Shown: one piece after another, positions 659 through 23,393 of the stretch
Position numbering within the stretch: the stretch's first letter is position 1
Layout: every line of letters begins with the position of its first letter
NCBI GenBank assembly: GCA_030599585.1
Contig: JAUVNS010000001.1
Span: forward strand, 96,001 to 160,000
Reading direction: 5' to 3'
DNA from: Promethearchaeota archaeon
GTDB lineage: Archaea > Asgardarchaeota > Lokiarchaeia > Sigyniarchaeales > SOKP01
DNA: 64,000 nt
Notes under the pieces: model-generated
What the model was told of the DNA's origin: nothing
Database searches by the model: none
What the model saw: the letters and a program-made list of their open reading frames with translations, nothing else
Made by a program: the position numbers and the translations under genes

Positions 659-1219
659 ATGAGTTTTAATTTCAAAAATAAATTTAAGGGAACAATCTCT
701 ATTATTGGCACGAGTGACATCGAACCAAGAACAGAAGAGATAGCTATAGAATTAGGACGGTTATTAGCTATTAATAATTATGCCGTGGCGTGCGGGGGGT
801 TGTATGGTGTTATGGAAGCCGTTTGTAAGGGCGCTAAAAAAGAAGGTGGTTTTACTATAGGTATTATTCCTTACGAAGATAAGAGTCGAGCAAATGAGTT
901 TATAGATGTTGTAATACCAGTCCCTTTTTCTCAGGCTCGAAATATTGTTGTAGTATTGAGTGGTGATGCTTGTGTCGCTGTAGAAGGAAAGGCTGGGACT
1001 CTTTCTGAAATCTGTTTTGCTTGGATATATGGGAAACCTATTATTGCACTAACTGGTGAAATTCATGGGTGGTCTTCCAAAATGGCGGGAAAAAAAATCG
1101 ATGACAGGAGGAGTGATTCGATCTATGGAGCTACATCAGCTCAAGAAGTCGTTGACCGATTGAACGACATTTTTAAAACTAAACCCAATATCAAGTATAA
1201 GATGCCTACTGAATTTTAA
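659..1219 (+). CDS. LOG/SLOG family protein (TIGR00725-like)
   Basis: CGGLYGVMEAVCKGA, ARN, GKAGTLSEI motifs. Confidence 0.9.
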   Translation: MSFNFKNKFKGTISIIGTSDIEPRTEEIAIELGRLLAINNYAVACGGLYGVMEAVCKGAKKEGGFTIGIIPYEDKSRANEFIDVVIPVPFSQARNIVVVLSGDACVAVEGKAGTLSEICFAWIYGKPIIALTGEIHGWSSKMAGKKIDDRRSDSIYGATSAQEVVDRLNDIFKTKPNIKYKMPTEF

Positions 1220-1390: not shown

Positions 1391-2356
1391 TTGACAATTC
1401 AATTTTTAGATGAGAAAAAGAAAACAAAAGAATCCGTTAGCCCAAGTAAACTCCTTTTCACAGGATTGGACAATGCTGGAAAAACGACTATAATCCAAGG
1501 AATTCAGCGTGAGTTTTCGAAAATCGCGTTTCTCAAACCTACACGAGGTGCTCAGAGAAGAATTTTTGAATTTATGGGACGGGAAATTGCAGAATGGGAC
1601 CTCGGGGGACAGATAAGTTATCGAATCTCTTATTTGAAAAACCCTGGAAAGTATTTTGACGACACTGAGATCACTATTTATGTTATAGATGTTCAAAATC
1701 GTGTCAGGATTCCCGAAGCCCTTAGTTATCTAAAAGACGTAGTTGACCGGTTTAAAAAACTTGAAATAGCTCCACCAATATATGTGTTCCTCCATAAATA
1801 CGATCCCGCGCTAAGAAGAAATGCCCTAAACGAAATGAAGAATCTCGAAGTAGAAATTAAGGATAAAATAAAAAGAACCGTAGATTATAAGGAAATCTTT
1901 TATTACACGACATCTATTTATGATTTGCCGAGTATAATTAAAGCCATGTCCGAAATCCTGCTCAGTTTGTATCCGAAATCAGAATTAATTGAAAAAACTA
2001 TAATAGAATTTGGCAAAAAAACCTCTTCTGACGGAGTTGTACTTTTGGATGATAATTCTCTTATCGTTGGAAGCTATTATAAAGACGAGGAAATAAAGAA
2101 TCTCCTCACGGCGAGTACCCCTTATTTTTTGACTTTAAACGATTCATTTATCTTTACCGAAGTACAACCAGGACGCCAACATGAAGAAAATCACATGATT
2201 GTACAAAGATATGGAAGGAATTTTATCTTCAAACAACTTACATTTAAAGAGGGATCGAGTCCTTATTACATCCTTATGCTTAAGCAAGATACGAATATAA
2301 ATAAAGACGAAATTGAAACCTTTGCTAATCTCTTAAAACAAATTTTATATAGTTAA
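1391..2356 (+). CDS. Rag/Gtr-like small GTPase with C-terminal roadblock-like domain
   Basis: G1 GLDNAGKT, G3 WDLGGQ, Rag-type G4 HKYD and G5 TSIYD; about 125 aa C-terminal domain; TTG start. Confidence 0.85.
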   Translation: MTIQFLDEKKKTKESVSPSKLLFTGLDNAGKTTIIQGIQREFSKIAFLKPTRGAQRRIFEFMGREIAEWDLGGQISYRISYLKNPGKYFDDTEITIYVIDVQNRVRIPEALSYLKDVVDRFKKLEIAPPIYVFLHKYDPALRRNALNEMKNLEVEIKDKIKRTVDYKEIFYYTTSIYDLPSIIKAMSEILLSLYPKSELIEKTIIEFGKKTSSDGVVLLDDNSLIVGSYYKDEEIKNLLTASTPYFLTLNDSFIFTEVQPGRQHEENHMIVQRYGRNFIFKQLTFKEGSSPYYILMLKQDTNINKDEIETFANLLKQILYS

Positions 2357-2464
2357 CTTCTACTCTTTTTAAAACCTTTTTGTCAACATTAATAAAATCG
2401 AATTTATTTATTAGTACTATATATTGTCAAATCTTTCTAAGAGAAAATTTTCCTAATTTGATAA

Positions 2465-3550
2465 TTGGTCGAGGAGGTAAACACTGTGATAATCTGTTCT
2501 AATTGTGGGACTACTAACAATGAATCAGCAGGTAATATTTGTAGAAAGTGTGGAGCATTACTTCCGAGGTCACGTAGACCACCAAGAATGAGAATTGCTC
2601 CAAAGAAAAAAGAAATCTTAGAACCTCAGGGAGAAAAGACAAAGGTAAAAACAAAAACAAAAACAAAAAAAACTCCACAACCAGCTAAATCCCAGAAAAA
2701 ACCACCAGTTAAGAAGGAACAAACAAAACCTACAAGTTTGGATCTTCATGAAATCCCGAAAGTTAAAGCATTGAATAACGACCAAGTCGAAATTTCGGAA
2801 GATGATATAGATGAAGAGGAAATAATTGAAGATGATTTCGATGATGATTTAGACGATCTGGAAGAAGATACAGATTTTCTACAGGAAATTGCTCCACAAC
2901 CATTCAGAGGCTCGATAATTGCTGATAAAGGCGTTTATGGACAACCTAAACCAAAAAGAAAGGTTTCACGTTCTAAGTCCAAAAAAGGCATTCAAGACGG
3001 AGTTGGTTCCGAAAGCACTGAATCCAACCTTCTAAAGCAGAAACAATTGGAAGAAGATATGACTAAAGTGCTTTCATTCTTGTCAAAGAAAATTACTGTA
3101 AAACCCTTAAAACCAGTTAAAAAAGGGGTAAAAGCTTCATCAAAACCTAAAGATTCCATACCTCCCTCGAGTATGAACGAAATCTTGAAAGATTTGTTAA
3201 AATTAGACTTACACATTGAAGCGTCTGCGATTATTAAAAAAGATGGGACAATATTAGCCTCAGCTCTTAGTTCAAGGATTTCAGATTCCCTTTTTGCGAC
3301 AATTGCAGCCAACCTGTCAATGATGGGAGTGGATATAATTGAAGGGTTAAGTGCTGGAACCTTATTAAATATGTCTATAAGGGGCACTGATGGAGTACTA
3401 GACTTAGCGCCTATCAGCTTTAAAAACCTTCCTGGAGACGAGATGATCTTAATTATTTTTTCGCATCCCAAAATCAAGAGTGGAATAATACACTTCGCAG
3501 TCAGTATTGTAAAGAAACGAGTAAAGCAATATCTAGGTTTATCAAAATAA
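2465..3550 (+). CDS. zinc ribbon + basic/acidic low-complexity linker + roadblock/LC7 domain protein
   Basis: CSNC...CRKC at N-term; K/P-rich then D/E-rich blocks; IEASAIIKKDGTILASAL roadblock-like C-term. Confidence 0.8.
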   Translation: MVEEVNTVIICSNCGTTNNESAGNICRKCGALLPRSRRPPRMRIAPKKKEILEPQGEKTKVKTKTKTKKTPQPAKSQKKPPVKKEQTKPTSLDLHEIPKVKALNNDQVEISEDDIDEEEIIEDDFDDDLDDLEEDTDFLQEIAPQPFRGSIIADKGVYGQPKPKRKVSRSKSKKGIQDGVGSESTESNLLKQKQLEEDMTKVLSFLSKKITVKPLKPVKKGVKASSKPKDSIPPSSMNEILKDLLKLDLHIEASAIIKKDGTILASALSSRISDSLFATIAANLSMMGVDIIEGLSAGTLLNMSIRGTDGVLDLAPISFKNLPGDEMILIIFSHPKIKSGIIHFAVSIVKKRVKQYLGLSK

Positions 3551-3567
3551 AAATCGTGTTCTTAACA

Positions 3568-4365
3568 TCAATGTAACTGCTTTTGCACACTAATTTTTTC
3601 AACCGTGACTGTTTTAAAATATGGCAAATTTACTGATAGTTCTTGCAAAAACGAGTTCAAATTTACAATTGCCACAAGTGGGACTGAATTATCGTTAATT
3701 TTTATCCAATTTGATTCTACTGTAACCATAAGCGGAATTAGAGTAAATGGTAACCGTTTTTTATAGTTATAGCTTAATCCTAATATCTCTTGAATCATAT
3801 TCGACAGGATTTCTGGATTCTTTTTAAGGGCTTTTACTCGCTGATATTGTAAATTCGCAGCCTTGTTCATGGCGGAATAAGAATCTTTGCGCTTCCATTG
3901 TTTAGCGTCTATAACAAGTATATAGTTTTGATAAATCCCTATTACATCAATTTCGTATCGTTTTTGAGAAGTTTCATATTTTAACTCAGACTTATCTGAA
4001 AACCTATAATTTTTTATCACCTTATAATGATTTTGAGATAAAATTTCTTGAATTAGCGCTTCGAATCCGTCGTAGTTTAATAAATATGATAATTGGTTTA
4101 TATCTAAATCCAAGTAGTTGAAGCATCTCGTAATAAACGCAATTTTGTCAATTACAAGGTAAGGTATGTAATTCCCTTTTTGAATCGTGATAAATTCAAA
4201 TCCTTTTATAAAATCCAGGACTTCACATTTATCAAAAGTCTTAAAAAGATCAATATCAGAAAACTCAAACCACAATTCGGTGACTTCCGAATTCGATTCT
4301 TTAAGTAAGTCGTAAATATCTGAAAAGAAATGTTTAACTGATGAATAAGAAAAAGGATCGATCAT
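3568..4365 (-). CDS. PD-(D/E)xK nuclease-fold protein (NERD/Mrr-like)
   Basis: FEALIQEIL...YEIDVIG...IDAKQW motif. Confidence 0.75.
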   Translation of the reverse strand: MIDPFSYSSVKHFFSDIYDLLKESNSEVTELWFEFSDIDLFKTFDKCEVLDFIKGFEFITIQKGNYIPYLVIDKIAFITRCFNYLDLDINQLSYLLNYDGFEALIQEILSQNHYKVIKNYRFSDKSELKYETSQKRYEIDVIGIYQNYILVIDAKQWKRKDSYSAMNKAANLQYQRVKALKKNPEILSNMIQEILGLSYNYKKRLPFTLIPLMVTVESNWIKINDNSVPLVAIVNLNSFLQELSVNLPYFKTVTVEKISVQKQLH

Positions 4366-4463
4366 ATTCTAACTGAAGATGATGGTATAAAATAATATAA
4401 GGAGAGTATCGATATATTGATTAAATGAAGTATTTTGAGTTTATACTTTCTTTTATTAGAAAG

Positions 4464-4889
4464 CTAACTGGGCTCGTCAGGATTCTCAATAAGTTTTTTT
4501 ACTTCATTAAATTCGGTTAGAACTCCCTGATAAATAAATTCTTTTAGCTCGTTAATGTCTTGACACTCATCAATCTTCTCTTCTAAATCGTGATAAGGAA
4601 ACCCTATTCTTGTATTTTGTAGCCGAGCTATTTCAAAACCAAATTTTGAAAGAGTATAACTAACTAACTCTCTTATAAGAGGCGCTGTTAAAATTTTAAG
4701 GTTAGACGACGCTATAAAACGGAATACGTCAAGCGTCACCTTTTCAGCGTCCTTTTCAGAAAGACTCGTTTCTTTAACAAGCCTATCATAGATGCGATTG
4801 GGATCGAATTTGTTCTTCTTTACAATACCCTCCTTTTTATCTTTATAAAGGACTTCTGGAAACGATTGAATTATTTTTTCGTCAAACAT
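4464..4889 (-). CDS. stand-alone ATP-cone protein resembling the archaeal NrdD N-terminus (ORF track start 4946; ATG 4889 preferred)
   Basis: KFDPNRIYDRLVKET...LTAPLIRELV...NTRIGFPYHD. Confidence 0.75.
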   Translation of the reverse strand: MFDEKIIQSFPEVLYKDKKEGIVKKNKFDPNRIYDRLVKETSLSEKDAEKVTLDVFRFIASSNLKILTAPLIRELVSYTLSKFGFEIARLQNTRIGFPYHDLEEKIDECQDINELKEFIYQGVLTEFNEVKKLIENPDEPS

Positions 4890-5237
4890 TTTAGGAGTTT
4901 TAACTTTGATTTTAATGATTAAATTATAAAAAGAAATACTTTTCATTAAAGCCTATTATTAAATTTTTATTAATTCCCTTAAATGATACTGAAAAGATTT
5001 ACAGATAGCGATTTTGTACTTCATTTTATAATCGTTTTTGAGTAAAATTGAATAATAAAACTTGAATAAATTTATAAAAGGATTTCCTTTTGATATTAGT
5101 ATATTTATATAATATATTATTTTAAATGGTTTTATAAGAAATTAGGATAAAATAGGTTTATGATTATACTTAGAAGCAGTGTCTTTTTAGCTAACTTCTT
5201 TTAAATCTTAGATAGTAGCCAAGATTGTCGTAGGATT

Positions 5238-6650
5238 ATGTCAGAACAGAAAAATAGTATTATTAAATCAATAGTTTTAAGTTTATTTGACGACGATGGA
5301 CCCACCCCTAAGATTTACTGGCCTACAGCAATGGACGAATCGTCACGCTTGCTAATAGCGATGAAAACGATTTCGCTATTAATGGGGGATTCTGTGTATC
5401 AAAATGGAACTTCGTCAGATAGTGTTAATTATTTCGGCATATTACCTTTTCCAGATTTAAAATTGAACGGGTTGACATATTTCTTCTTAATTCTTGATCC
5501 GACGGCCAGAGGCAACGCTAAGGCAGCTACTATTACCGTTCTAATAAATGAAGACGATAGGGTTTTTTTCTACGAAAATATGAAGTATTTAAGAGTCATA
5601 ATAGATAAATCTGCGTCAAGAGTTCAATTAGCTAAAACGATGGAAGAAAACCAAACAATTATGGATGATTTAAAAGAAGAATTATTCAATTTTACTAGCG
5701 AGATAAAGGATCCCTTCCTAAATTTGAGACAAATCAAAATTCTTATGACAGGATTGGATCGAGCGGGAAAAACAAGTTTCTTGCATGCCGTTAAGCAAAG
5801 ATATAGTGAAATTATCAAAACTTTACCAACTAAGGGAGTCGCACGAAGCGAAGAAAAGATATTCGAAGAACAAAATTCTAAGATATCGCTTTGGGATTTA
5901 GGGGGGCAAAAGAAGTACAGAGATAAATTTATTGAACAAAGAAAAGTTTACCTCTACAACGTTGATCTACTTTATTATTTTATAGATATTCAAGATTCAG
6001 AAAGGATTTCGGAAGCAATTGAATTGTTTGAAACCGTCATCAATTCTCTTATCGAATTGGAAGAATTTCCCCCAATTGTTGTATGCCTCAATAAATTTGA
6101 TCCCGATATTAAAAATGCGAAGGAAATTAAAAAAAATATTAAAACTGTAAATGAAAACATTCATTTAATCTCTGAAAGGTTTTTTGTGAAGATTTTCCAG
6201 ACTTCTATCTTTGATCATTGGTCGTTAGTCTCAGCTTATTCCTACGGTTTATCGCAATTAAGCCCTAATAGGGAACTGTTTCAAAATCAATTAAAGCATT
6301 TTGCGAAGAAAATAAATTCCGATGCAATACTATTGCTCAACGAAAATGGAATTATCCTTTCAAATTTCTCTAAGCCTGGCATTTCTGAAAGGGTTTTTGA
6401 AATTTCTGCCCCTCACTTCCAAACATTGTATAAAACATTTAAGGAATTTAAAATACTTAAACAAGATTTTTTAATTTCATCTGGAATAACTTCTGAATCA
6501 AAGAAAATAATATTTAAAAGGATTCCTGTTGAGAAATATAACCTTTACCTACTTTTGTTCTTGGAAAAAGAGCTAAATATTGATAAAATAGATAAAAATT
6601 TACCTAAATTATCTAAAAACTTGAATGATTTAATCCAGACTTACATATAA
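5238..6650 (+). CDS. FLCN/SMCR8-like longin (uDENN) domain + Rag-like GTPase + roadblock-like domain fusion
   Basis: N-term FDDDGPTP and FFLILDPTARG; G1 GLDRAGKT, WDLGGQ, NKFD, TSIFD; C-term QLSPNRELFQNQLKHFAKKINSDAILL. Confidence 0.85.
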   Translation: MSEQKNSIIKSIVLSLFDDDGPTPKIYWPTAMDESSRLLIAMKTISLLMGDSVYQNGTSSDSVNYFGILPFPDLKLNGLTYFFLILDPTARGNAKAATITVLINEDDRVFFYENMKYLRVIIDKSASRVQLAKTMEENQTIMDDLKEELFNFTSEIKDPFLNLRQIKILMTGLDRAGKTSFLHAVKQRYSEIIKTLPTKGVARSEEKIFEEQNSKISLWDLGGQKKYRDKFIEQRKVYLYNVDLLYYFIDIQDSERISEAIELFETVINSLIELEEFPPIVVCLNKFDPDIKNAKEIKKNIKTVNENIHLISERFFVKIFQTSIFDHWSLVSAYSYGLSQLSPNRELFQNQLKHFAKKINSDAILLLNENGIILSNFSKPGISERVFEISAPHFQTLYKTFKEFKILKQDFLISSGITSESKKIIFKRIPVEKYNLYLLLFLEKELNIDKIDKNLPKLSKNLNDLIQTYI

Positions 6651-7038: not shown

Positions 7039-7491
7039 TTATTTTTCTGGTTCAGCTCTAAACCTGTATTCTGCAACCCAAGATGTGTGAGCCTGAGAGA
7101 TAAGATTTTCAATTCGCTCTACAAACAATTTTTGCTTATCTTGAGCTTTACCATATTCATTTATGTTTGCTTTGAAGTAGTACTGCTCTTTTTTCAATAA
7201 TTCAGCAACCGATCTATAATTTACCCATTTTTCTTGAAATTTCAGAAATCTTATGGTTGGTGCTATAAAGGCTATAAGTATGGATGTAATCACGGAAAGA
7301 ACTCGCAAAATAGGGAATTCTTGGAAGATAATATCTATGATGATTAAAAGTGGAGTCATTGATGTTAAAGCAATTAAAGTTAATTGTAGAGTTGTATTCC
7401 AGTTTTTATTAAATCTAGCCTTGTTTTCATACCATTGTCTTTGATTTTCATATCTATCCTTTAAATATGTTTCAAATTCGTTATCGTTCAT
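7039..7491 (-). CDS. SLATT (DUF4231) two-TM protein
   Basis: YLKDRYENQRQWY, two TM helices, KFQEKWVNYRSVAELLKKE, LFVERIE. Confidence 0.85.
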   Translation of the reverse strand: MNDNEFETYLKDRYENQRQWYENKARFNKNWNTTLQLTLIALTSMTPLLIIIDIIFQEFPILRVLSVITSILIAFIAPTIRFLKFQEKWVNYRSVAELLKKEQYYFKANINEYGKAQDKQKLFVERIENLISQAHTSWVAEYRFRAEPEK

Positions 7492-7804: not shown

Positions 7805-9124
7805 TTAATAGCCTGAAGCTTGTTCGTATAACCTTCTTTTTTTCCTACTCGATCTAATCAATAGAGTAACACCGATTATTACTACCCCAACAATAGATAC
7901 TATAACAATAATAATAATTAGGTCAGTGAAAAGCAAGTCTGTTTCTAATACTGTTATTTTAACTTCGTAGTTAAAAGAGTAAGCGTCGTGATCTGATGCA
8001 ACTGGAGATGGGATAAAGGGGAATTCTGAGGCATAATCGTATCCAGAGGAGGCACCGGGTATAAAAAACCACGCGCCAATGTTTAAGTTAAATCTTCTGT
8101 AATCAATTTTTTTATAGGAACTTCCTATTTGAGGTTCACACGCAATCCATCCTATTTCAGGGATATAGTATTCGACCCAAGCATGTCCTAAAAAGTTTGA
8201 GCTCCCACTGGAGGCCGCGGTGAATGTGAAAACCTCTCCTACTGCAGGATTGAATTCATCTTCAGAGACAATGAAAAAACCGGCTACTTTTCTTGCTGGA
8301 ATCCCTTGAATTCGCAATAGTGTAACCATTAAAGTAGAATATTCACTACAATCTCCTTTTTTGTTGTCAAAGGCCCAAGAGGCTCCTTTTTCTTCAGCAG
8401 GAAGAGTTCCATCGTATACTAAGTAATTGGATACATTTTCACAAATTTTCCTAGCTTTTTCTAACGGGTTATCAGAAGGAAGTACGATGCGATTTGAGGC
8501 GGTGATTAAATCAGGATCGTTTATATCGTAATAAGTTTCTGTATTATTACAATATAAATTAAACATTTCATCAGATGTGTCATAGCTTCCTATATCAGTA
8601 TCTCCTATGTTGCCAAAAGCGATTTCGTTCAGCTTTATAAGATATTTTTGACTAAGTGTAATTGTTTCAGAAGTACTCATAGCAGTAACATTAAATAGAT
8701 CATAGGTATTGTTGAATTTATCATGTGACCCCATTATAAGCGTATCGTATCCAGTTATAGAATTGTACAAGAGTTGAGCTTCTTGATATGGTGGAGTATA
8801 TTGGGTTATTGACGAATTAGGTTGTCTATTATTCAAACGTACAACTTTAAAATAATAATTTTGCGGAGTTATTCTCGTATGAGTGAAAGTATAGTTTATG
8901 TCTACTTGATATGTAATTCCTTGGTTGATTGAATAATTAGATACACCGTCAGTAGAGCTAACTGCGAGCTCATTGGTGATATTTAACGGGAATAGAACAA
9001 TTAATACTATTAATACTAGTTTGAATGCTTTCATGGTTGTGAGATCAATTAAATTATGTTTTGTATAGATATTATGAAAATCTCTATTTTTATTTGTTCT
9101 GGTATTTTTACTAAAGAAGAACAT
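7805..9124 (-). CDS. membrane-anchored transglutaminase-like protein (true start probably the internal ATG near 9034)
   Basis: GDCSEYSTL...GIPAR...GHAWVEYY...GWIACEP; signal peptide; C-terminal TM plus basic tail. Confidence 0.85.
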   Translation of the reverse strand: MFFFSKNTRTNKNRDFHNIYTKHNLIDLTTMKAFKLVLIVLIVLFPLNITNELAVSSTDGVSNYSINQGITYQVDINYTFTHTRITPQNYYFKVVRLNNRQPNSSITQYTPPYQEAQLLYNSITGYDTLIMGSHDKFNNTYDLFNVTAMSTSETITLSQKYLIKLNEIAFGNIGDTDIGSYDTSDEMFNLYCNNTETYYDINDPDLITASNRIVLPSDNPLEKARKICENVSNYLVYDGTLPAEEKGASWAFDNKKGDCSEYSTLMVTLLRIQGIPARKVAGFFIVSEDEFNPAVGEVFTFTAASSGSSNFLGHAWVEYYIPEIGWIACEPQIGSSYKKIDYRRFNLNIGAWFFIPGASSGYDYASEFPFIPSPVASDHDAYSFNYEVKITVLETDLLFTDLIIIIVIVSIVGVVIIGVTLLIRSSRKKRRLYEQASGY

Positions 9125-9189: not shown

Positions 9190-9831
9190 ATTATCTACAA
9201 AATATTTCTAATTGATAGCGACAGTGGGATTTCACTTCTAGAAACTACTTTTAAGGAATTAAAATATAAAAACAATGGTAATAATGTTATACCCGGTTTT
9301 TTTAATGAAATAAATGAGATAATCGATAAAATTCAAGCTGCTATGGTTAAGGGTAAAAATAAAGATGATATGACTAGAATTGTCGAATCGGAAAATTCTA
9401 CAATTATTATTGTTTACCATCCTCCCTCAAGGATTTTATATTGCTCTATTTCTGATGCTGATGATGATATAGATAAATTAATTAATGTAATTCATAAAAT
9501 ATCTAGTAGGTTCTTTAAAAAACATCAATCGGACCTAGCATTATTTAGAACTACTTCAGAGAAATCGAGATTTCAGACGATTAAAACGGATATAGAAAAT
9601 ATATGTCAAGGGGGGCGTATAGCTGAAGTCTTTCCAAGATTACTCGTGGGCGAGAAAGTCTTGCCCAAAATCGTTTCAATGGGGATGATTGACGACGAGG
9701 ACCTTCAAGTTGCCTTGAAATGCACTGGAAAAACCTCACCCTTAAGAATAGCAAGGGAGTTAGCTAAATCTCGGAACGACGTAAATAGCATCTTAAAAAA
9801 ATTAGAACAGTTAGATATCGTTAATTTCTAA
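9190..9831 (+). CDS. longin domain + winged-helix protein; start extended to ATT 9190 (track: ATG 9343)
   Basis: Frame open from 9184; upstream codons read IIYKIFLIDSDSGISLLE, a longin beta1-beta2 pattern; C-term wHTH (IARELAKSRNDVNSILKKL). Confidence 0.7.
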   Translation: MIYKIFLIDSDSGISLLETTFKELKYKNNGNNVIPGFFNEINEIIDKIQAAMVKGKNKDDMTRIVESENSTIIIVYHPPSRILYCSISDADDDIDKLINVIHKISSRFFKKHQSDLALFRTTSEKSRFQTIKTDIENICQGGRIAEVFPRLLVGEKVLPKIVSMGMIDDEDLQVALKCTGKTSPLRIARELAKSRNDVNSILKKLEQLDIVNF

Positions 9832-22343: not shown

Positions 22344-23393
22344 ATGAAGAAGCTAATTGATGCTGTAATATATACAGATGTTCACGATGAACTCGGTCCG
22401 AATCCCATTCTTTGGCTACCGCCAAATTTACCTGAATCTGTCAGAATGTTAGTAGGAATTAAAACTGTAACATTACTTACAGGTGACCAAGGGTCTGTAC
22501 CAGATTCGCTATTAATAATCCCTTTTCCTTCACTTAAATTAAAAGGATTAATTAGATATATAGAAAGAGAAGATGAAAGTAAAAGAGGAGGATTCGCAAG
22601 AAGTGCAATAACATTCTTGTTTAAAGAAACAGATGATGTGATTTTCTATAAATATATGGGTTATCTTAAAGCTCCCTTCGATGAAACTTCGAGAAAAATA
22701 ATTGAATTAGAGAACAACCATGCAGAAAGTTCAAAAATCTTTGAAGAGATTAAAATTTTACGAGATAGCGTCAGTGAATTACTAGATGATTTTAGAACTA
22801 AAGAAATAACTTCACCAGCATCAAAAGAATTTCCAGAAAAACGAGTTAAAGATGATAAAGTAGTAGATTATAGACTTAAACTCGTAATAGTTGGAGATCC
22901 TGGAGTAGGTAAGACATCTACCATACTAAGATTTACTGATAACGCGTTCTTAAGAACATATGTTCCAACACTTGGGGTATCCATTACTGAAAAATTATTT
23001 GATACCAAAAGCGGAGTAATAGAAACGATCTTATGGGACATCGCAGGACAAGCAAAATTTGAGACGATGAGAAGACATTTCTACCAAGGCTCTGAGGCGA
23101 TATTACTTATTTTTGATCTAACTAATAGAAATTCCTTTACAAGTATAAAATCGTGGTATCATGACGTTATGAAAAACATGGAGAAACATCACCACAAAAT
23201 GTCGGGTTATATTTTTGGAAATAAAAGTGATTTAATCGAACTACGAAAAGTTAAATTAGTTGAAGCTTTAGCTTTAGCTAAGGAATTGAATTTAAAATAC
23301 ATAGAAATATCTGCCCTAACTGGTAAAAATGTCGAATACGCTTTTTATGATATTGCCAACACAGTCGTAAAAATGCGTTTGAACAAACCTTAA
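22344..23393 (+). CDS. FLCN/SMCR8-like longin domain fused to Rab-like GTPase
   Basis: HDELGPNPILWLP, EDESKRGG; GDPGVGKT, YVPTLG, WDIAGQ, GNKSD, EISA. Confidence 0.85.
   Translation: MKKLIDAVIYTDVHDELGPNPILWLPPNLPESVRMLVGIKTVTLLTGDQGSVPDSLLIIPFPSLKLKGLIRYIEREDESKRGGFARSAITFLFKETDDVIFYKYMGYLKAPFDETSRKIIELENNHAESSKIFEEIKILRDSVSELLDDFRTKEITSPASKEFPEKRVKDDKVVDYRLKLVIVGDPGVGKTSTILRFTDNAFLRTYVPTLGVSITEKLFDTKSGVIETILWDIAGQAKFETMRRHFYQGSEAILLIFDLTNRNSFTSIKSWYHDVMKNMEKHHHKMSGYIFGNKSDLIELRKVKLVEALALAKELNLKYIEISALTGKNVEYAFYDIANTVVKMRLNKP

Follow-up and report, generated by a model that had tools for sequence, protein, structure and literature searches.

A possible conserved Lokiarchaeial neighbourhood of Rag/Gtr-family GTPase paralogues, one with a putative built-in folliculin-type GAP finger

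In a window of 64,000 nucleotides from a Promethearchaeota archaeon (Lokiarchaeia, Sigyniarchaeales, SOKP01; GCA_030599585.1, JAUVNS010000001.1 positions 96,001-160,000), we identified a locus that we read, with confidence a little short of even, as a conserved Lokiarchaeial neighbourhood of paralogous Rag/Gtr-family GTPases, one of which (RAG2) carries a built-in folliculin-type GAP finger, and not as a one-to-one ancestor of the RagA/RagC-Ragulator-FLCN system. The majority of its components have been reported before, their architectures having been described in Tran 2024 and Traffic 2025. The locus comprises RAG1 (ORF 1391-2356), ZnRB (ORF 2465-3550), and RAG2 (ORF 5238-6650), and a third Rag-like paralogue, the longin-GTPase RAG3, lies outside the window, 853 nt upstream. 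An earlier note on this DNA had described two Rag-type GTPases with C-terminal roadblock domains and a roadblock protein between them; Pfam, profiles, and models bear this out, and the Rag strings that it quoted are present in the translations where it placed them. The clustering of Rag-like genes exceeds chance: 3 of the 13 PF04670 matches above 60 bits in the 4.85-Mb genome fall within ~9 kb at the locus, and we estimate that chance would give ~0.17 pairs within 5.3 kb.

RAG2 (5238..6650, + strand) is a longin-GTPase-roadblock ("LGR") protein according to Pfam, AF2 models, and Foldseek and VIA matches, with a longin at residues ~9-131, a helical linker at 135-156, a G domain from 165 to ~330 (motifs GLDRAGKT, WDLGGQ, and NKFD), and a roadblock at ~340-470. 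It matches Pfam Gtr1_RagA at 94.7 bits over residues 167-374 (cut-off 22 bits), its orthologue profile (A1) aligns RagA through the C-terminal domain (162-440 to 25-301), and ~310 columns of its AF2 model superpose on RagA/Gtr1 at a TM of 0.69-0.71, depending on the target. Against Pfam Folliculin it scores 17.2 bits, under the 23.3 cut-off, and FLCN is out of reach of sequence profiles. The AF2 model of the longin (pLDDT 87.5) matches Lst4, C9orf72-SMCR8, FLCN, and NPRL2 at Z 12-13.4, as against 9.1-9.3 for SNARE longins, and the Foldseek ranking agrees; among eukaryotic systems, the longin-domain GAP complexes FLCN-FNIP (Lst7-Lst4), GATOR1 NPRL2-NPRL3, and C9orf72-SMCR8 have the closest folds, and the best structural match of all is 8yqg, a dimeric Loki longin domain.

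Two motifs accompany this fold. A GP pair (G21-P22; 5298..5303, + strand) at the start of strand beta2 is invariant in 26/26 RAG2 and RAG3 longins, and a candidate arginine finger, D87-x-x-A90-R91-G92 (5496..5513, + strand; R91 codon 5508-5510), sits in the beta4-beta5 hairpin according to the secondary structure of the model. D87, A90, R91, and G92, together with the GP motif, are unchanged in 20/20 RAG2 orthologues that range from 30 to 93% identity. FLCN, NPRL2, and SMCR8 have likewise been described as having a GP before beta2 and a conserved hairpin arginine, and the candidate R91 may correspond to FLCN R164, NPRL2 R78, and SMCR8 R147. Fold and conservation together support placing the modelled RAG2 N-terminus among the "GAP-longins" of FLCN, NPRL2, and SMCR8, its invariant arginine being a candidate catalytic residue; the FLCN-like domain that the earlier note placed on this gene is a folliculin-class longin. 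The DENN domain of eukaryotic longin-GAP proteins is absent from RAG2, whose GAP activity is putative.

The same motifs have precedents in Asgard archaea. By the definition used in PMC12290439 (Traffic 2025), the GP motif is specific to GAP longins, which are defined by the GP and arginine motifs together, and both were already seen there in free-standing Asgard Folliculin/SMCR8-type longins at the same secondary-structure positions as in RAG2. Those longins are separate proteins, whereas RAG2 links its own covalently to a Rag-like GTPase; for the free-standing longins the GTPase partner was posed as an open question, to which the RAG2 fusion suggests an answer. The architecture is also shared with proteins of 'Ca. 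Prometheoarchaeum syntrophicum' MK-D1, for which the available sections of Tran et al. 2024 (PMC10933270) describe longin-GTPase-roadblock proteins, with the GTPase fused between longin and roadblock, and GTPase-roadblock "Rag-like" proteins. LGR-type proteins were modelled there as dimers via their longin and roadblock domains, and one operon pair, which need not correspond to RAG1/RAG2, as a Gtr1/Gtr2-like heterodimer. Those sections make no mention of a GAP-type arginine, of a GP motif in the fused longin, or of a RAG neighbourhood.

RAG3 completes the comparison with eukaryotic longin-GAP complexes. Its longin keeps the GP and has no conserved arginine at the arginine-finger site, so that RAG2 with the arginine and RAG3 without it resemble catalytic and non-catalytic subunits, as with SMCR8 and C9orf72. 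A tree built on the G and roadblock domains groups RAG2 with RAG3 on one side of a 99/98 split, apart from RAG1 and the other paralogues. Judged from this tree, the closest paralogue of RAG2 is RAG3, not RAG1; mutual identity among the three is only 32-34%. We hypothesize that each GTPase dimerises via its roadblock domain, that RAG2 also dimerises via its longin, pairing either with a second copy of itself or with RAG3, the sister that lacks the arginine, and that the longin arginine would speed GTP hydrolysis on a G domain in the same assembly. A further likeness lies in the target class, since eukaryotic longin-GAP complexes act on Rag or Arf GTPases; those complexes act as separate proteins, whereas RAG2, in which longin, Rag-like GTPase, and roadblock are fused in cis, may represent a built-in form of the longin-GAP/Rag pairing. 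Its output would be something other than TORC1 signalling. In family f4 and genus g16 no clear RAG3 orthologue was found and the RAG2 arginine is kept, so a RAG2:RAG3 pair cannot be universal.

RAG1 (1391..2356, + strand) begins at TTG 1391 with GGTGA upstream and matches Pfam Gtr1_RagA at 93.5 bits over residues 20-234 (cut-off 22 bits). A G domain at residues ~20-190 (P-loop GLDNAGKT, WDLGGQ, and HKYD) is followed by a C-terminal roadblock at ~195-321, and its orthologue profile (A2) aligns Gtr1 through the C-terminal domain (11-299 to 5-297). RAG1 also matches PDB entry 8yl2 with an E of 1.6e-87 over residues 10-318. This entry, titled 'Homo Tetrameric RagA-like small GTPase from Asgard Lokiarchaeota (LokiRagO)', contains GTP, was released 2025-09-10, and shares the G domain and roadblock; no paper on it was found in our literature search. 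Its sequence matches, at 100% identity, the gene that occupies the RAG1 position in another genome (L032:11932-12954, - strand, in G022), which has the order RAG1-NERD-RAG2, belongs to another family of the order, and has no ZnRB gene between the two GTPases. That gene is ~46% identical to RAG1, and by position and sequence RAG1 is the syntenic orthologue of LokiRagO, beside which LokiRagM (8zla/9m28) is also among the closest known structures.

These observations bear on the earlier note's model, in which RAG1 and RAG2 form a roadblock heterodimer, the longin of RAG2 supplies, through its arginine, GAP activity on RAG1 in trans, and ZnRB docks the pair in the manner of a LAMTOR. We regard this model as improbable. 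Eukaryotic Rags are heterodimers, whereas the RAG1 orthologue was deposited as a homo-tetramer with GTP, self-associating without a partner, and it is RAG3, not RAG1, that is the sister of RAG2. In some genera RAG1 lies far from RAG2 (88 kb in G011, 60 kb in G013, separate contigs in G001), yet still ~6 kb from RAG3. In favour of the heterodimer is G008, where RAG1, ZnRB, and RAG2 are contiguous and co-directional with gaps of 120 and 54 bp. A search there gave no clear RAG3 orthologue, and switch I and the DxxGQ motif are lost from RAG2 while GP and ARG are kept, so that in this genome action in trans fits better than a cis effect on the G domain of RAG2 itself. Linkage also speaks for it: in >60 genomes of family f1 (12 genera) the orthologues of RAG1 and RAG2 share a contig and a strand at 3-11 kb from each other, and in genus g20 the distance is ~1 kb. 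Most relatives keep the genes linked, as the note had expected of other Lokiarchaeia.

ZnRB (2465..3550, + strand) bears on the adaptor part of this model. Weak Pfam Zn_ribbon and Robl_LC7 matches, the orthologue alignment, and PDB roadblock matches delineate an N-terminal CxxC...CxxC zinc ribbon, a disordered linker of ~200 residues that is basic and then acidic with short conserved motifs, and a roadblock in the last ~125 residues (3173-3547); the true start is likely GTG 2486, preceded by GGAGGT. The whole protein scores 18.5 against Robl_LC7, under the cut-off of 23, but 5/11 orthologue C-termini match (best E 1.2e-5), and a search with the ZnRB profile recovers Roadblock/LC7 proteins of solved structure (7f8m, E 5.5e-8; 7yh1, E 5e-6; also 9jue). 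Where present in the fetched loci, ZnRB always adjoins RAG1. A check of four more distant genomes (G022, G011, G032, and G013), covering genera g20, g13, and g19 and family f4, which retain both GTPases, gave no ZnRB orthologue, which argues against an obligatory LAMTOR-like adaptor; the zinc ribbon and long linker also set it apart from LAMTORs. We propose for ZnRB, encoded immediately after RAG1, the role of a lineage-restricted accessory protein with a zinc ribbon and a roadblock domain.

Nor does the proposed RagC-like versus RagA-like division of RAG1 and RAG2 hold. Orthologue profiles of RAG1 and RAG2 score 73/62 and 94.5/84 bits against RagA/Gtr1 and 49/47 and 53.6/52.7 bits against RagC/Gtr2, both being nearer the former. 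The RagA motif given in the earlier note agrees with PDB RagA, but RagA in that alignment has HKMD, which rules out HKxD as a RagC signature; this G4 motif, as in eukaryotic Rags, occurs in RAG1 and in RAG2 orthologues of families f2-f4. What the locus shares with RagA/B-RagC/D (Gtr1-Gtr2) is PF04670, a G domain with C-terminal roadblock, and roadblock proteins nearby, and in the literature both eukaryotic Rag lineages group together, nested among Asgard RagGtr proteins. A nutrient switch finds little footing, as the genome (estimated 100% complete) yielded no PI3K/TOR-type kinase domain and the genes on either side have functions unrelated to those of the GTPases at the locus.

The remaining alternative, unlikely but to be taken seriously, is that RAG1, RAG2, RAG3, and ZnRB are independent switches with other partners, held together by inherited gene order, the RAG2 arginine being structural or serving another class (ArfR, Rab-like). 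The RAG3 / RAG1 / ZnRB / RAG2 block is kept throughout family f1 and in some members of f2. The whole ~25-kb block is syntenic across the order, including functionally unrelated genes (MtrH-like, AIR-synthase-like, transglutaminase-like, and methyltransferase), so RAG linkage may partly be inherited gene order. The low identity among RAG1-3 is consistent with this alternative, as are the ~13 strong Rag-like paralogues, the several free roadblock and longin proteins, and, in the available sections of Tran et al. 2024 (PMC10933270), MK-D1 GTPase genes that generally lie outside operons with roadblock/longin genes. Against it, three strong Rag-like genes with a roadblock and a further longin-like gene are unlikely to cluster by chance, the clustering persists at 30-45% protein identity, and the joining of a GAP-class longin and a Rag-like G domain in one polypeptide itself argues for a functional link.

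RAG1/ZnRB and RAG2 are separated by opposite-strand genes, NERD and often NrdD, so that they form no operon in this genome, which likewise favours independent switches. The NERD-domain gene (3568..4365, - strand; Pfam NERD 29 bits) occupies this position in 15/20 fetched loci (L031-L050), including family f2. Beside it lies a 160-aa ATP-cone-like ORF (4464..4946, - strand; weak match, 16.8 bits), at whose position other genera encode an anaerobic ribonucleotide reductase NrdD of ~600 aa (e.g. L044:9488-11317, NRDD 203.7 bits plus ATP-cone). A small longin-like gene conserved downstream in the same block (9343..9831, + strand) has no Pfam match and has same-position orthologues in 14 loci. Directly upstream of RAG1, as genomic context, is a conserved SLOG/LOG-like gene (TIGR00725; 659..1219, + strand; Pfam LDcluster4 139 bits, NCBIfam TIGR00725 125.5 bits) that is syntenic in L039, L040, L041, L045, L047, L048, and L049.

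Two Rag-family GTPases that each end in a roadblock domain lie within the window, as the earlier note had proposed. RAG1 (1391-2356, forward strand, 321 aa) and RAG2 (5238-6650, forward strand, 470 aa) contain in translation the strings quoted for them, and their G domains match Pfam Gtr1_RagA (PF04670) at 93.5 and 94.7 bits, respectively, against a cut-off of 22. Orthologue profiles of both can be aligned with yeast Gtr1, human RagA and RagC through the C-terminal roadblock domains (CRDs), and an AF2 model of RAG2 (mean pLDDT 73.6) superposes on RagA/Gtr1 chains over ~310 columns. The CRD that follows the G domain of RAG1 is also supported by a full-length match to a solved protein, PDB 8yl2 (E 1.6e-87). 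The genome (4.85 Mb, Promethearchaeota/Lokiarchaeia), in which the window spans C20:96001-160000, holds 13 strong PF04670 matches, three of which fall within ~9 kb at this locus; the third gene here is RAG3, a 507-aa longin-GTPase-roadblock protein on the minus strand that ends 853 nt before the window. A homologue search with RAG2 returned close orthologues, 72-94% identical among the matches listed and annotated as Promethearchaeota or Lokiarchaeota, and no eukaryotic sequences; the proteins are named 'ADP-ribosylation factor-like protein', 'small GTP-binding protein' or 'hypothetical'.

The solved relative of RAG1 was released on 2025-09-10 under the title 'Homo Tetrameric RagA-like small GTPase from Asgard Lokiarchaeota (LokiRagO) in complex with GTP', and it is 100% identical to the product of the gene at the RAG1 position in a related genome, G022, where the order is RAG1-NERD-RAG2. 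The PDB title thus shows this RAG1 orthologue to be homo-oligomeric and, since it was deposited as a homo-tetramer, it self-associates without a second Rag, in contrast to the obligate heterodimers of eukaryotic Rags. A literature search for 8YL2 or LokiRag found no paper describing the structure. A second RAG1-type gene occurs on another contig of the window's own genome (C32:9426-10391, forward strand); it is 51% identical and nests in the RAG1 clade of family f1, and is therefore a within-family duplicate. It has a further Rag-like gene at a distance of 10 kb (C32:20342-21286).

Eukaryotic Rag and Arf GTPases are regulated by the longin-domain GAP complexes FLCN-FNIP, GATOR1 and C9orf72-SMCR8, and the catalytic arginine fingers are FLCN R164, NPRL2 R78 and SMCR8 R147. 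When residues 9-131 of RAG2 were modelled alone (pLDDT 87.5), they gave a longin fold with a long helix after it, and with 8yqg, a dimeric Loki longin domain, as the best match (Z 18.7). VIA Z scores were 13.4 for Lst4, 13.3 for C9orf72-SMCR8, 12.8 for FLCN (8dhb_J) and 12.0 for NPRL2, as against only 9.1-9.3 for the SNARE longins VAMP7, Ykt6 and Sec22b; Foldseek matches to the GAP-longin/uDENN group had E values of 2.5e-4 to 1.4e-3. Among the eukaryotic structures compared, the modelled fold is nearest to this group. All 26 RAG2 and RAG3 longins share an unchanged GP motif (G21-P22), with beta2 beginning at residue 21 in the model. A second motif, D-x-x-A-R-G (D87, A90, R91 and G92), is invariant across all 20 RAG2 orthologues, which span 30-93% identity, and its arginine sits in the beta4-beta5 hairpin of the modelled domain. 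Model and motif together suggest that R91 may be the equivalent of the FLCN, NPRL2 and SMCR8 arginines.

The earlier note had called this domain FLCN-like, and the nearness of its fold to GAP longins and its GP motif bear that out. The Pfam Folliculin model (PF11704), however, scores 17.2 bits, below its cut-off of 23.3, and the longin is followed by the GTPase and roadblock parts with no DENN domain. A search of the PDB with a profile of the RAG2 longin gave 8yqg, the Loki longin (E 0.0011), and nothing else, missing FLCN, NPRL2 and SMCR8; the folliculin link is therefore one of structure plus motifs. A GP motif together with an arginine finger makes up the signature of GAP longins, and both are present in free-standing Asgard longins (PMC12290439, 2025), in a study that leaves open which GTPases those longins serve and makes no mention of fusions. 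The longin-GTPase-roadblock architecture itself was described by Tran et al. 2024 (PMC10933270) in passages that make no mention of the GP or arginine motifs.

RAG1, RAG2 and RAG3 are pairwise 32-34% identical. In a tree of G and roadblock domains from archaeal sequences alone, a 99/98 split separates RAG2 and RAG3 from RAG1 and other paralogues; RAG1 (100/99) and RAG3 (100/97) form clean orthogroups. Their low identity, and the fact that each is an order-wide orthogroup, led us to reject a recent tandem duplication. A division of the pair into a RagC-like RAG1 and a RagA-like RAG2 had been suggested earlier. The RAG1 orthologue profile scores 73/62 bits to RagA/Gtr1 vs 49/47 to RagC/Gtr2, and the RAG2 profile 94.5/84 vs 53.6/52.7, such that both are nearer to RagA/Gtr1, whereas a eukaryotic Rag heterodimer joins one subunit of each type. 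The G4 motif reads HKYD in RAG1, NKFD in RAG2 of this genome and HKxD in RAG2 orthologues of the families f2-f4; HKxD was rejected as a RagC marker because RagA itself carries HKMD. Both eukaryotic Rag lineages are nested among Asgard RagGtr proteins (Vargova et al.). Judged by the PDB profile scores and by the phylogeny of Vargova et al., the proposed split is therefore unsupported, and the locus does not map one to one onto RagA/RagC.

Beyond what is shown here, namely membership in the Rag family, the order of the domains, the conserved motifs and the synteny, we infer an assembly in which the roadblock domains would dimerise, the longin domains of RAG2 and RAG3 would do so as well, and the RAG2 arginine would be a GAP finger built into the protein and directed at a G domain of the same assembly. 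The RAG3 longin keeps the GP motif and has no conserved arginine, and this arginine-less protein beside RAG2 echoes C9orf72 beside SMCR8. We tentatively favour an arginine acting within a RAG2:RAG3 or RAG2:RAG2 dimer, with a confidence that stops somewhat short of even.

The earlier note paired RAG1 with RAG2, with the arginine acting in trans, a reading that we consider unlikely. Complex prediction for full-length RAG1 and RAG2 with two GTP and two Mg, made from our own alignments and run with no controls, gave ipSAE values of 0.23 and 0.07, where the mark is 0.32, and counts neither for nor against the pairing; the use of full-length chains with ligands, and not of the roadblock domains alone, probably cost this prediction sensitivity. 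What speaks for action in trans is a natural variant in the related genome G008, where RAG1, ZnRB (the zinc-ribbon and roadblock protein encoded between the two GTPases) and RAG2 are contiguous and co-directional. The RAG2 orthologue there (L050:11797-13161, forward strand) is degenerate in switch I and G3, with WDYKPK vs WDLGGQ and hence no DxxGQ, whereas its P-loop, HKFD, GP motif and ARG motif are all kept; it occupies a long branch of the tree. It looks like a pseudo-GTPase with the candidate GAP finger retained. The accompanying RAG1 orthologue (L050:9567-10532, forward strand) retains P-loop and WDLGGQ intact, and its open frame of 321 codons contains no ATG, GTG or TTG 5' of the P-loop, which hints at a start on a non-canonical codon or at a sequencing error.

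Gene order was rebuilt in 20 loci from four families of the order. The conserved block runs MtrH-like, RAG3 (minus), AIR-synthase-like, SLOG, RAG1, ZnRB, NERD (minus), NrdD or an ATP-cone remnant, RAG2, transglutaminase-like (minus), small longin-like, L13e-HhH and onwards. In family f1, as seen in more than 60 genomes of 12 genera, RAG1 and RAG2 share a single contig and strand at a distance of 3-11 kb, and in genus g20 they are ~1 kb apart with NERD alone between them. Elsewhere the distance is 10.8 kb (G032), 60 kb (G013) or 88 kb (G011), or the two lie on separate contigs (G001); RAG1 is still ~6 kb from RAG3 in G011 and G001, and no clear RAG3 orthologue was found in family f4 or genus g16. 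Many genes of the block are functionally unrelated to these GTPases. Its conserved members include a transglutaminase-core protein (7805-9124, reverse strand, 79.8 bits) and an MtrH-like methyltransferase (L051:6675-7613, forward strand, 198 bits), and the block is therefore not functionally uniform. Independent switches that owe their proximity only to inherited gene order are an explanation that we regard as fairly unlikely, though we place it ahead of the RAG1:RAG2 trans reading.

In ZnRB (2465-3550, forward strand), a CxxC...CxxC zinc ribbon is joined by a long linker, first basic and then acidic, to a C-terminal roadblock domain; its start is likely the GTG at 2486, with GGAGGT in front. 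In 5 of 11 orthologues this last domain is recognised by Robl_LC7, and solved roadblock proteins match it at E 5.5e-8, in agreement with the earlier description of a roadblock protein between the two GTPases. The further proposal of a LAMTOR-like adaptor holds for the fold, since a roadblock-fold subunit is common to ZnRB and Ragulator/LAMTOR (EGO), but not for co-occurrence. The Ragulator scaffold co-occurs with its Rag pair, whereas ZnRB orthologues were found in f1 and G008 only (G008 at E 1e-44) and not in G022, G011, G032 or G013, all of which carry RAG1 and RAG2 and offer only distant roadblock proteins of ~125 aa (E 1e-7 to 1e-10). Ragulator binds the CRDs of Rags, and its lipidated subunit LAMTOR1 acts as membrane anchor; ZnRB differs in having a zinc ribbon and charged linker in place of such an anchor.

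A bolder form of the trans reading would make the RAG2 longin arginine a true GAP finger on RAG1 in a roadblock-mediated hetero-oligomer tethered by ZnRB, ancestral to FLCN/GATOR1 and Ragulator by fission. We hold this to be improbable; its best hint is the G008 locus, because the genes are contiguous there, the RAG2 G domain has decayed and the arginine is intact. If true, a Rag, longin-GAP and roadblock-scaffold module would predate eukaryotes, with separate FLCN or GATOR1 and Ragulator proteins arising later by fission. The role as a nutrient switch proposed in the earlier note found no backing: no feature of the locus hints at the sensing of amino acids, and a PI3K/TOR-type kinase domain (PF00454), in contrast to the TORC1 pathway with TOR kinase as effector, had no match in this genome (completeness estimate 100%).

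Asgard RagGtr GTPases, longin-GTPase-roadblock proteins, LokiRagO and Asgard GAP-type longins are all published kinds. What may be new is the explicit reading of RAG2 as a Rag-like GTPase that carries a GAP-signature longin, the neighbourhood that unites it across the order with a twin devoid of the arginine, an orthologue of LokiRagO and a roadblock protein bearing a zinc ribbon, and the G008 variant. A GAP-class longin covalently fused to a Rag-family GTPase, and conserved in one neighbourhood with that twin, a RagA-like paralogue of solved structure and the roadblock protein, offers a "Rosetta-stone" hint that the longin-GAP/Rag pairing is older than eukaryotes, and the soluble, partly crystallised protein set allows a direct test of that pairing.

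A 349-aa protein at 22344-23393 (forward strand; C20:118344-119393 on the contig), 31-36% identical to the RAG2 longin in its N-terminal part, is a further longin-fused GTPase within the window, and a similar protein is encoded before the window (C20:84183-85220, reverse strand). The small longin-like gene at 9343-9831 (forward strand) is conserved, with 162 aa from the first canonical start here and in locus L049 and 176-226 aa in the other mapped genera. The ORF at 4464-4946 (reverse strand, 160 aa) matches only the N-terminal ATP-cone part of the ~600-aa anaerobic ribonucleotide reductase NrdD, which is full-length at this position in L043, L044, L045 and L048; with a 94% identical copy in L049, it is a conserved short form or a remnant in this genus. 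Between RAG2 and the transglutaminase-like gene lies a SLATT/DUF4231 two-TM effector gene (7039-7491, reverse strand; Pfam DUF4231 64.8 bits, SLATT_1 59.5 bits); none of the 20 related loci that were mapped gave a match to it. SLOG and SLATT are known to act as partners in conflict systems, but the SLOG gene here (659-1219, forward strand; LDcluster4/TIGR00725), conserved upstream of RAG1, is 6 kb away from the SLATT gene.
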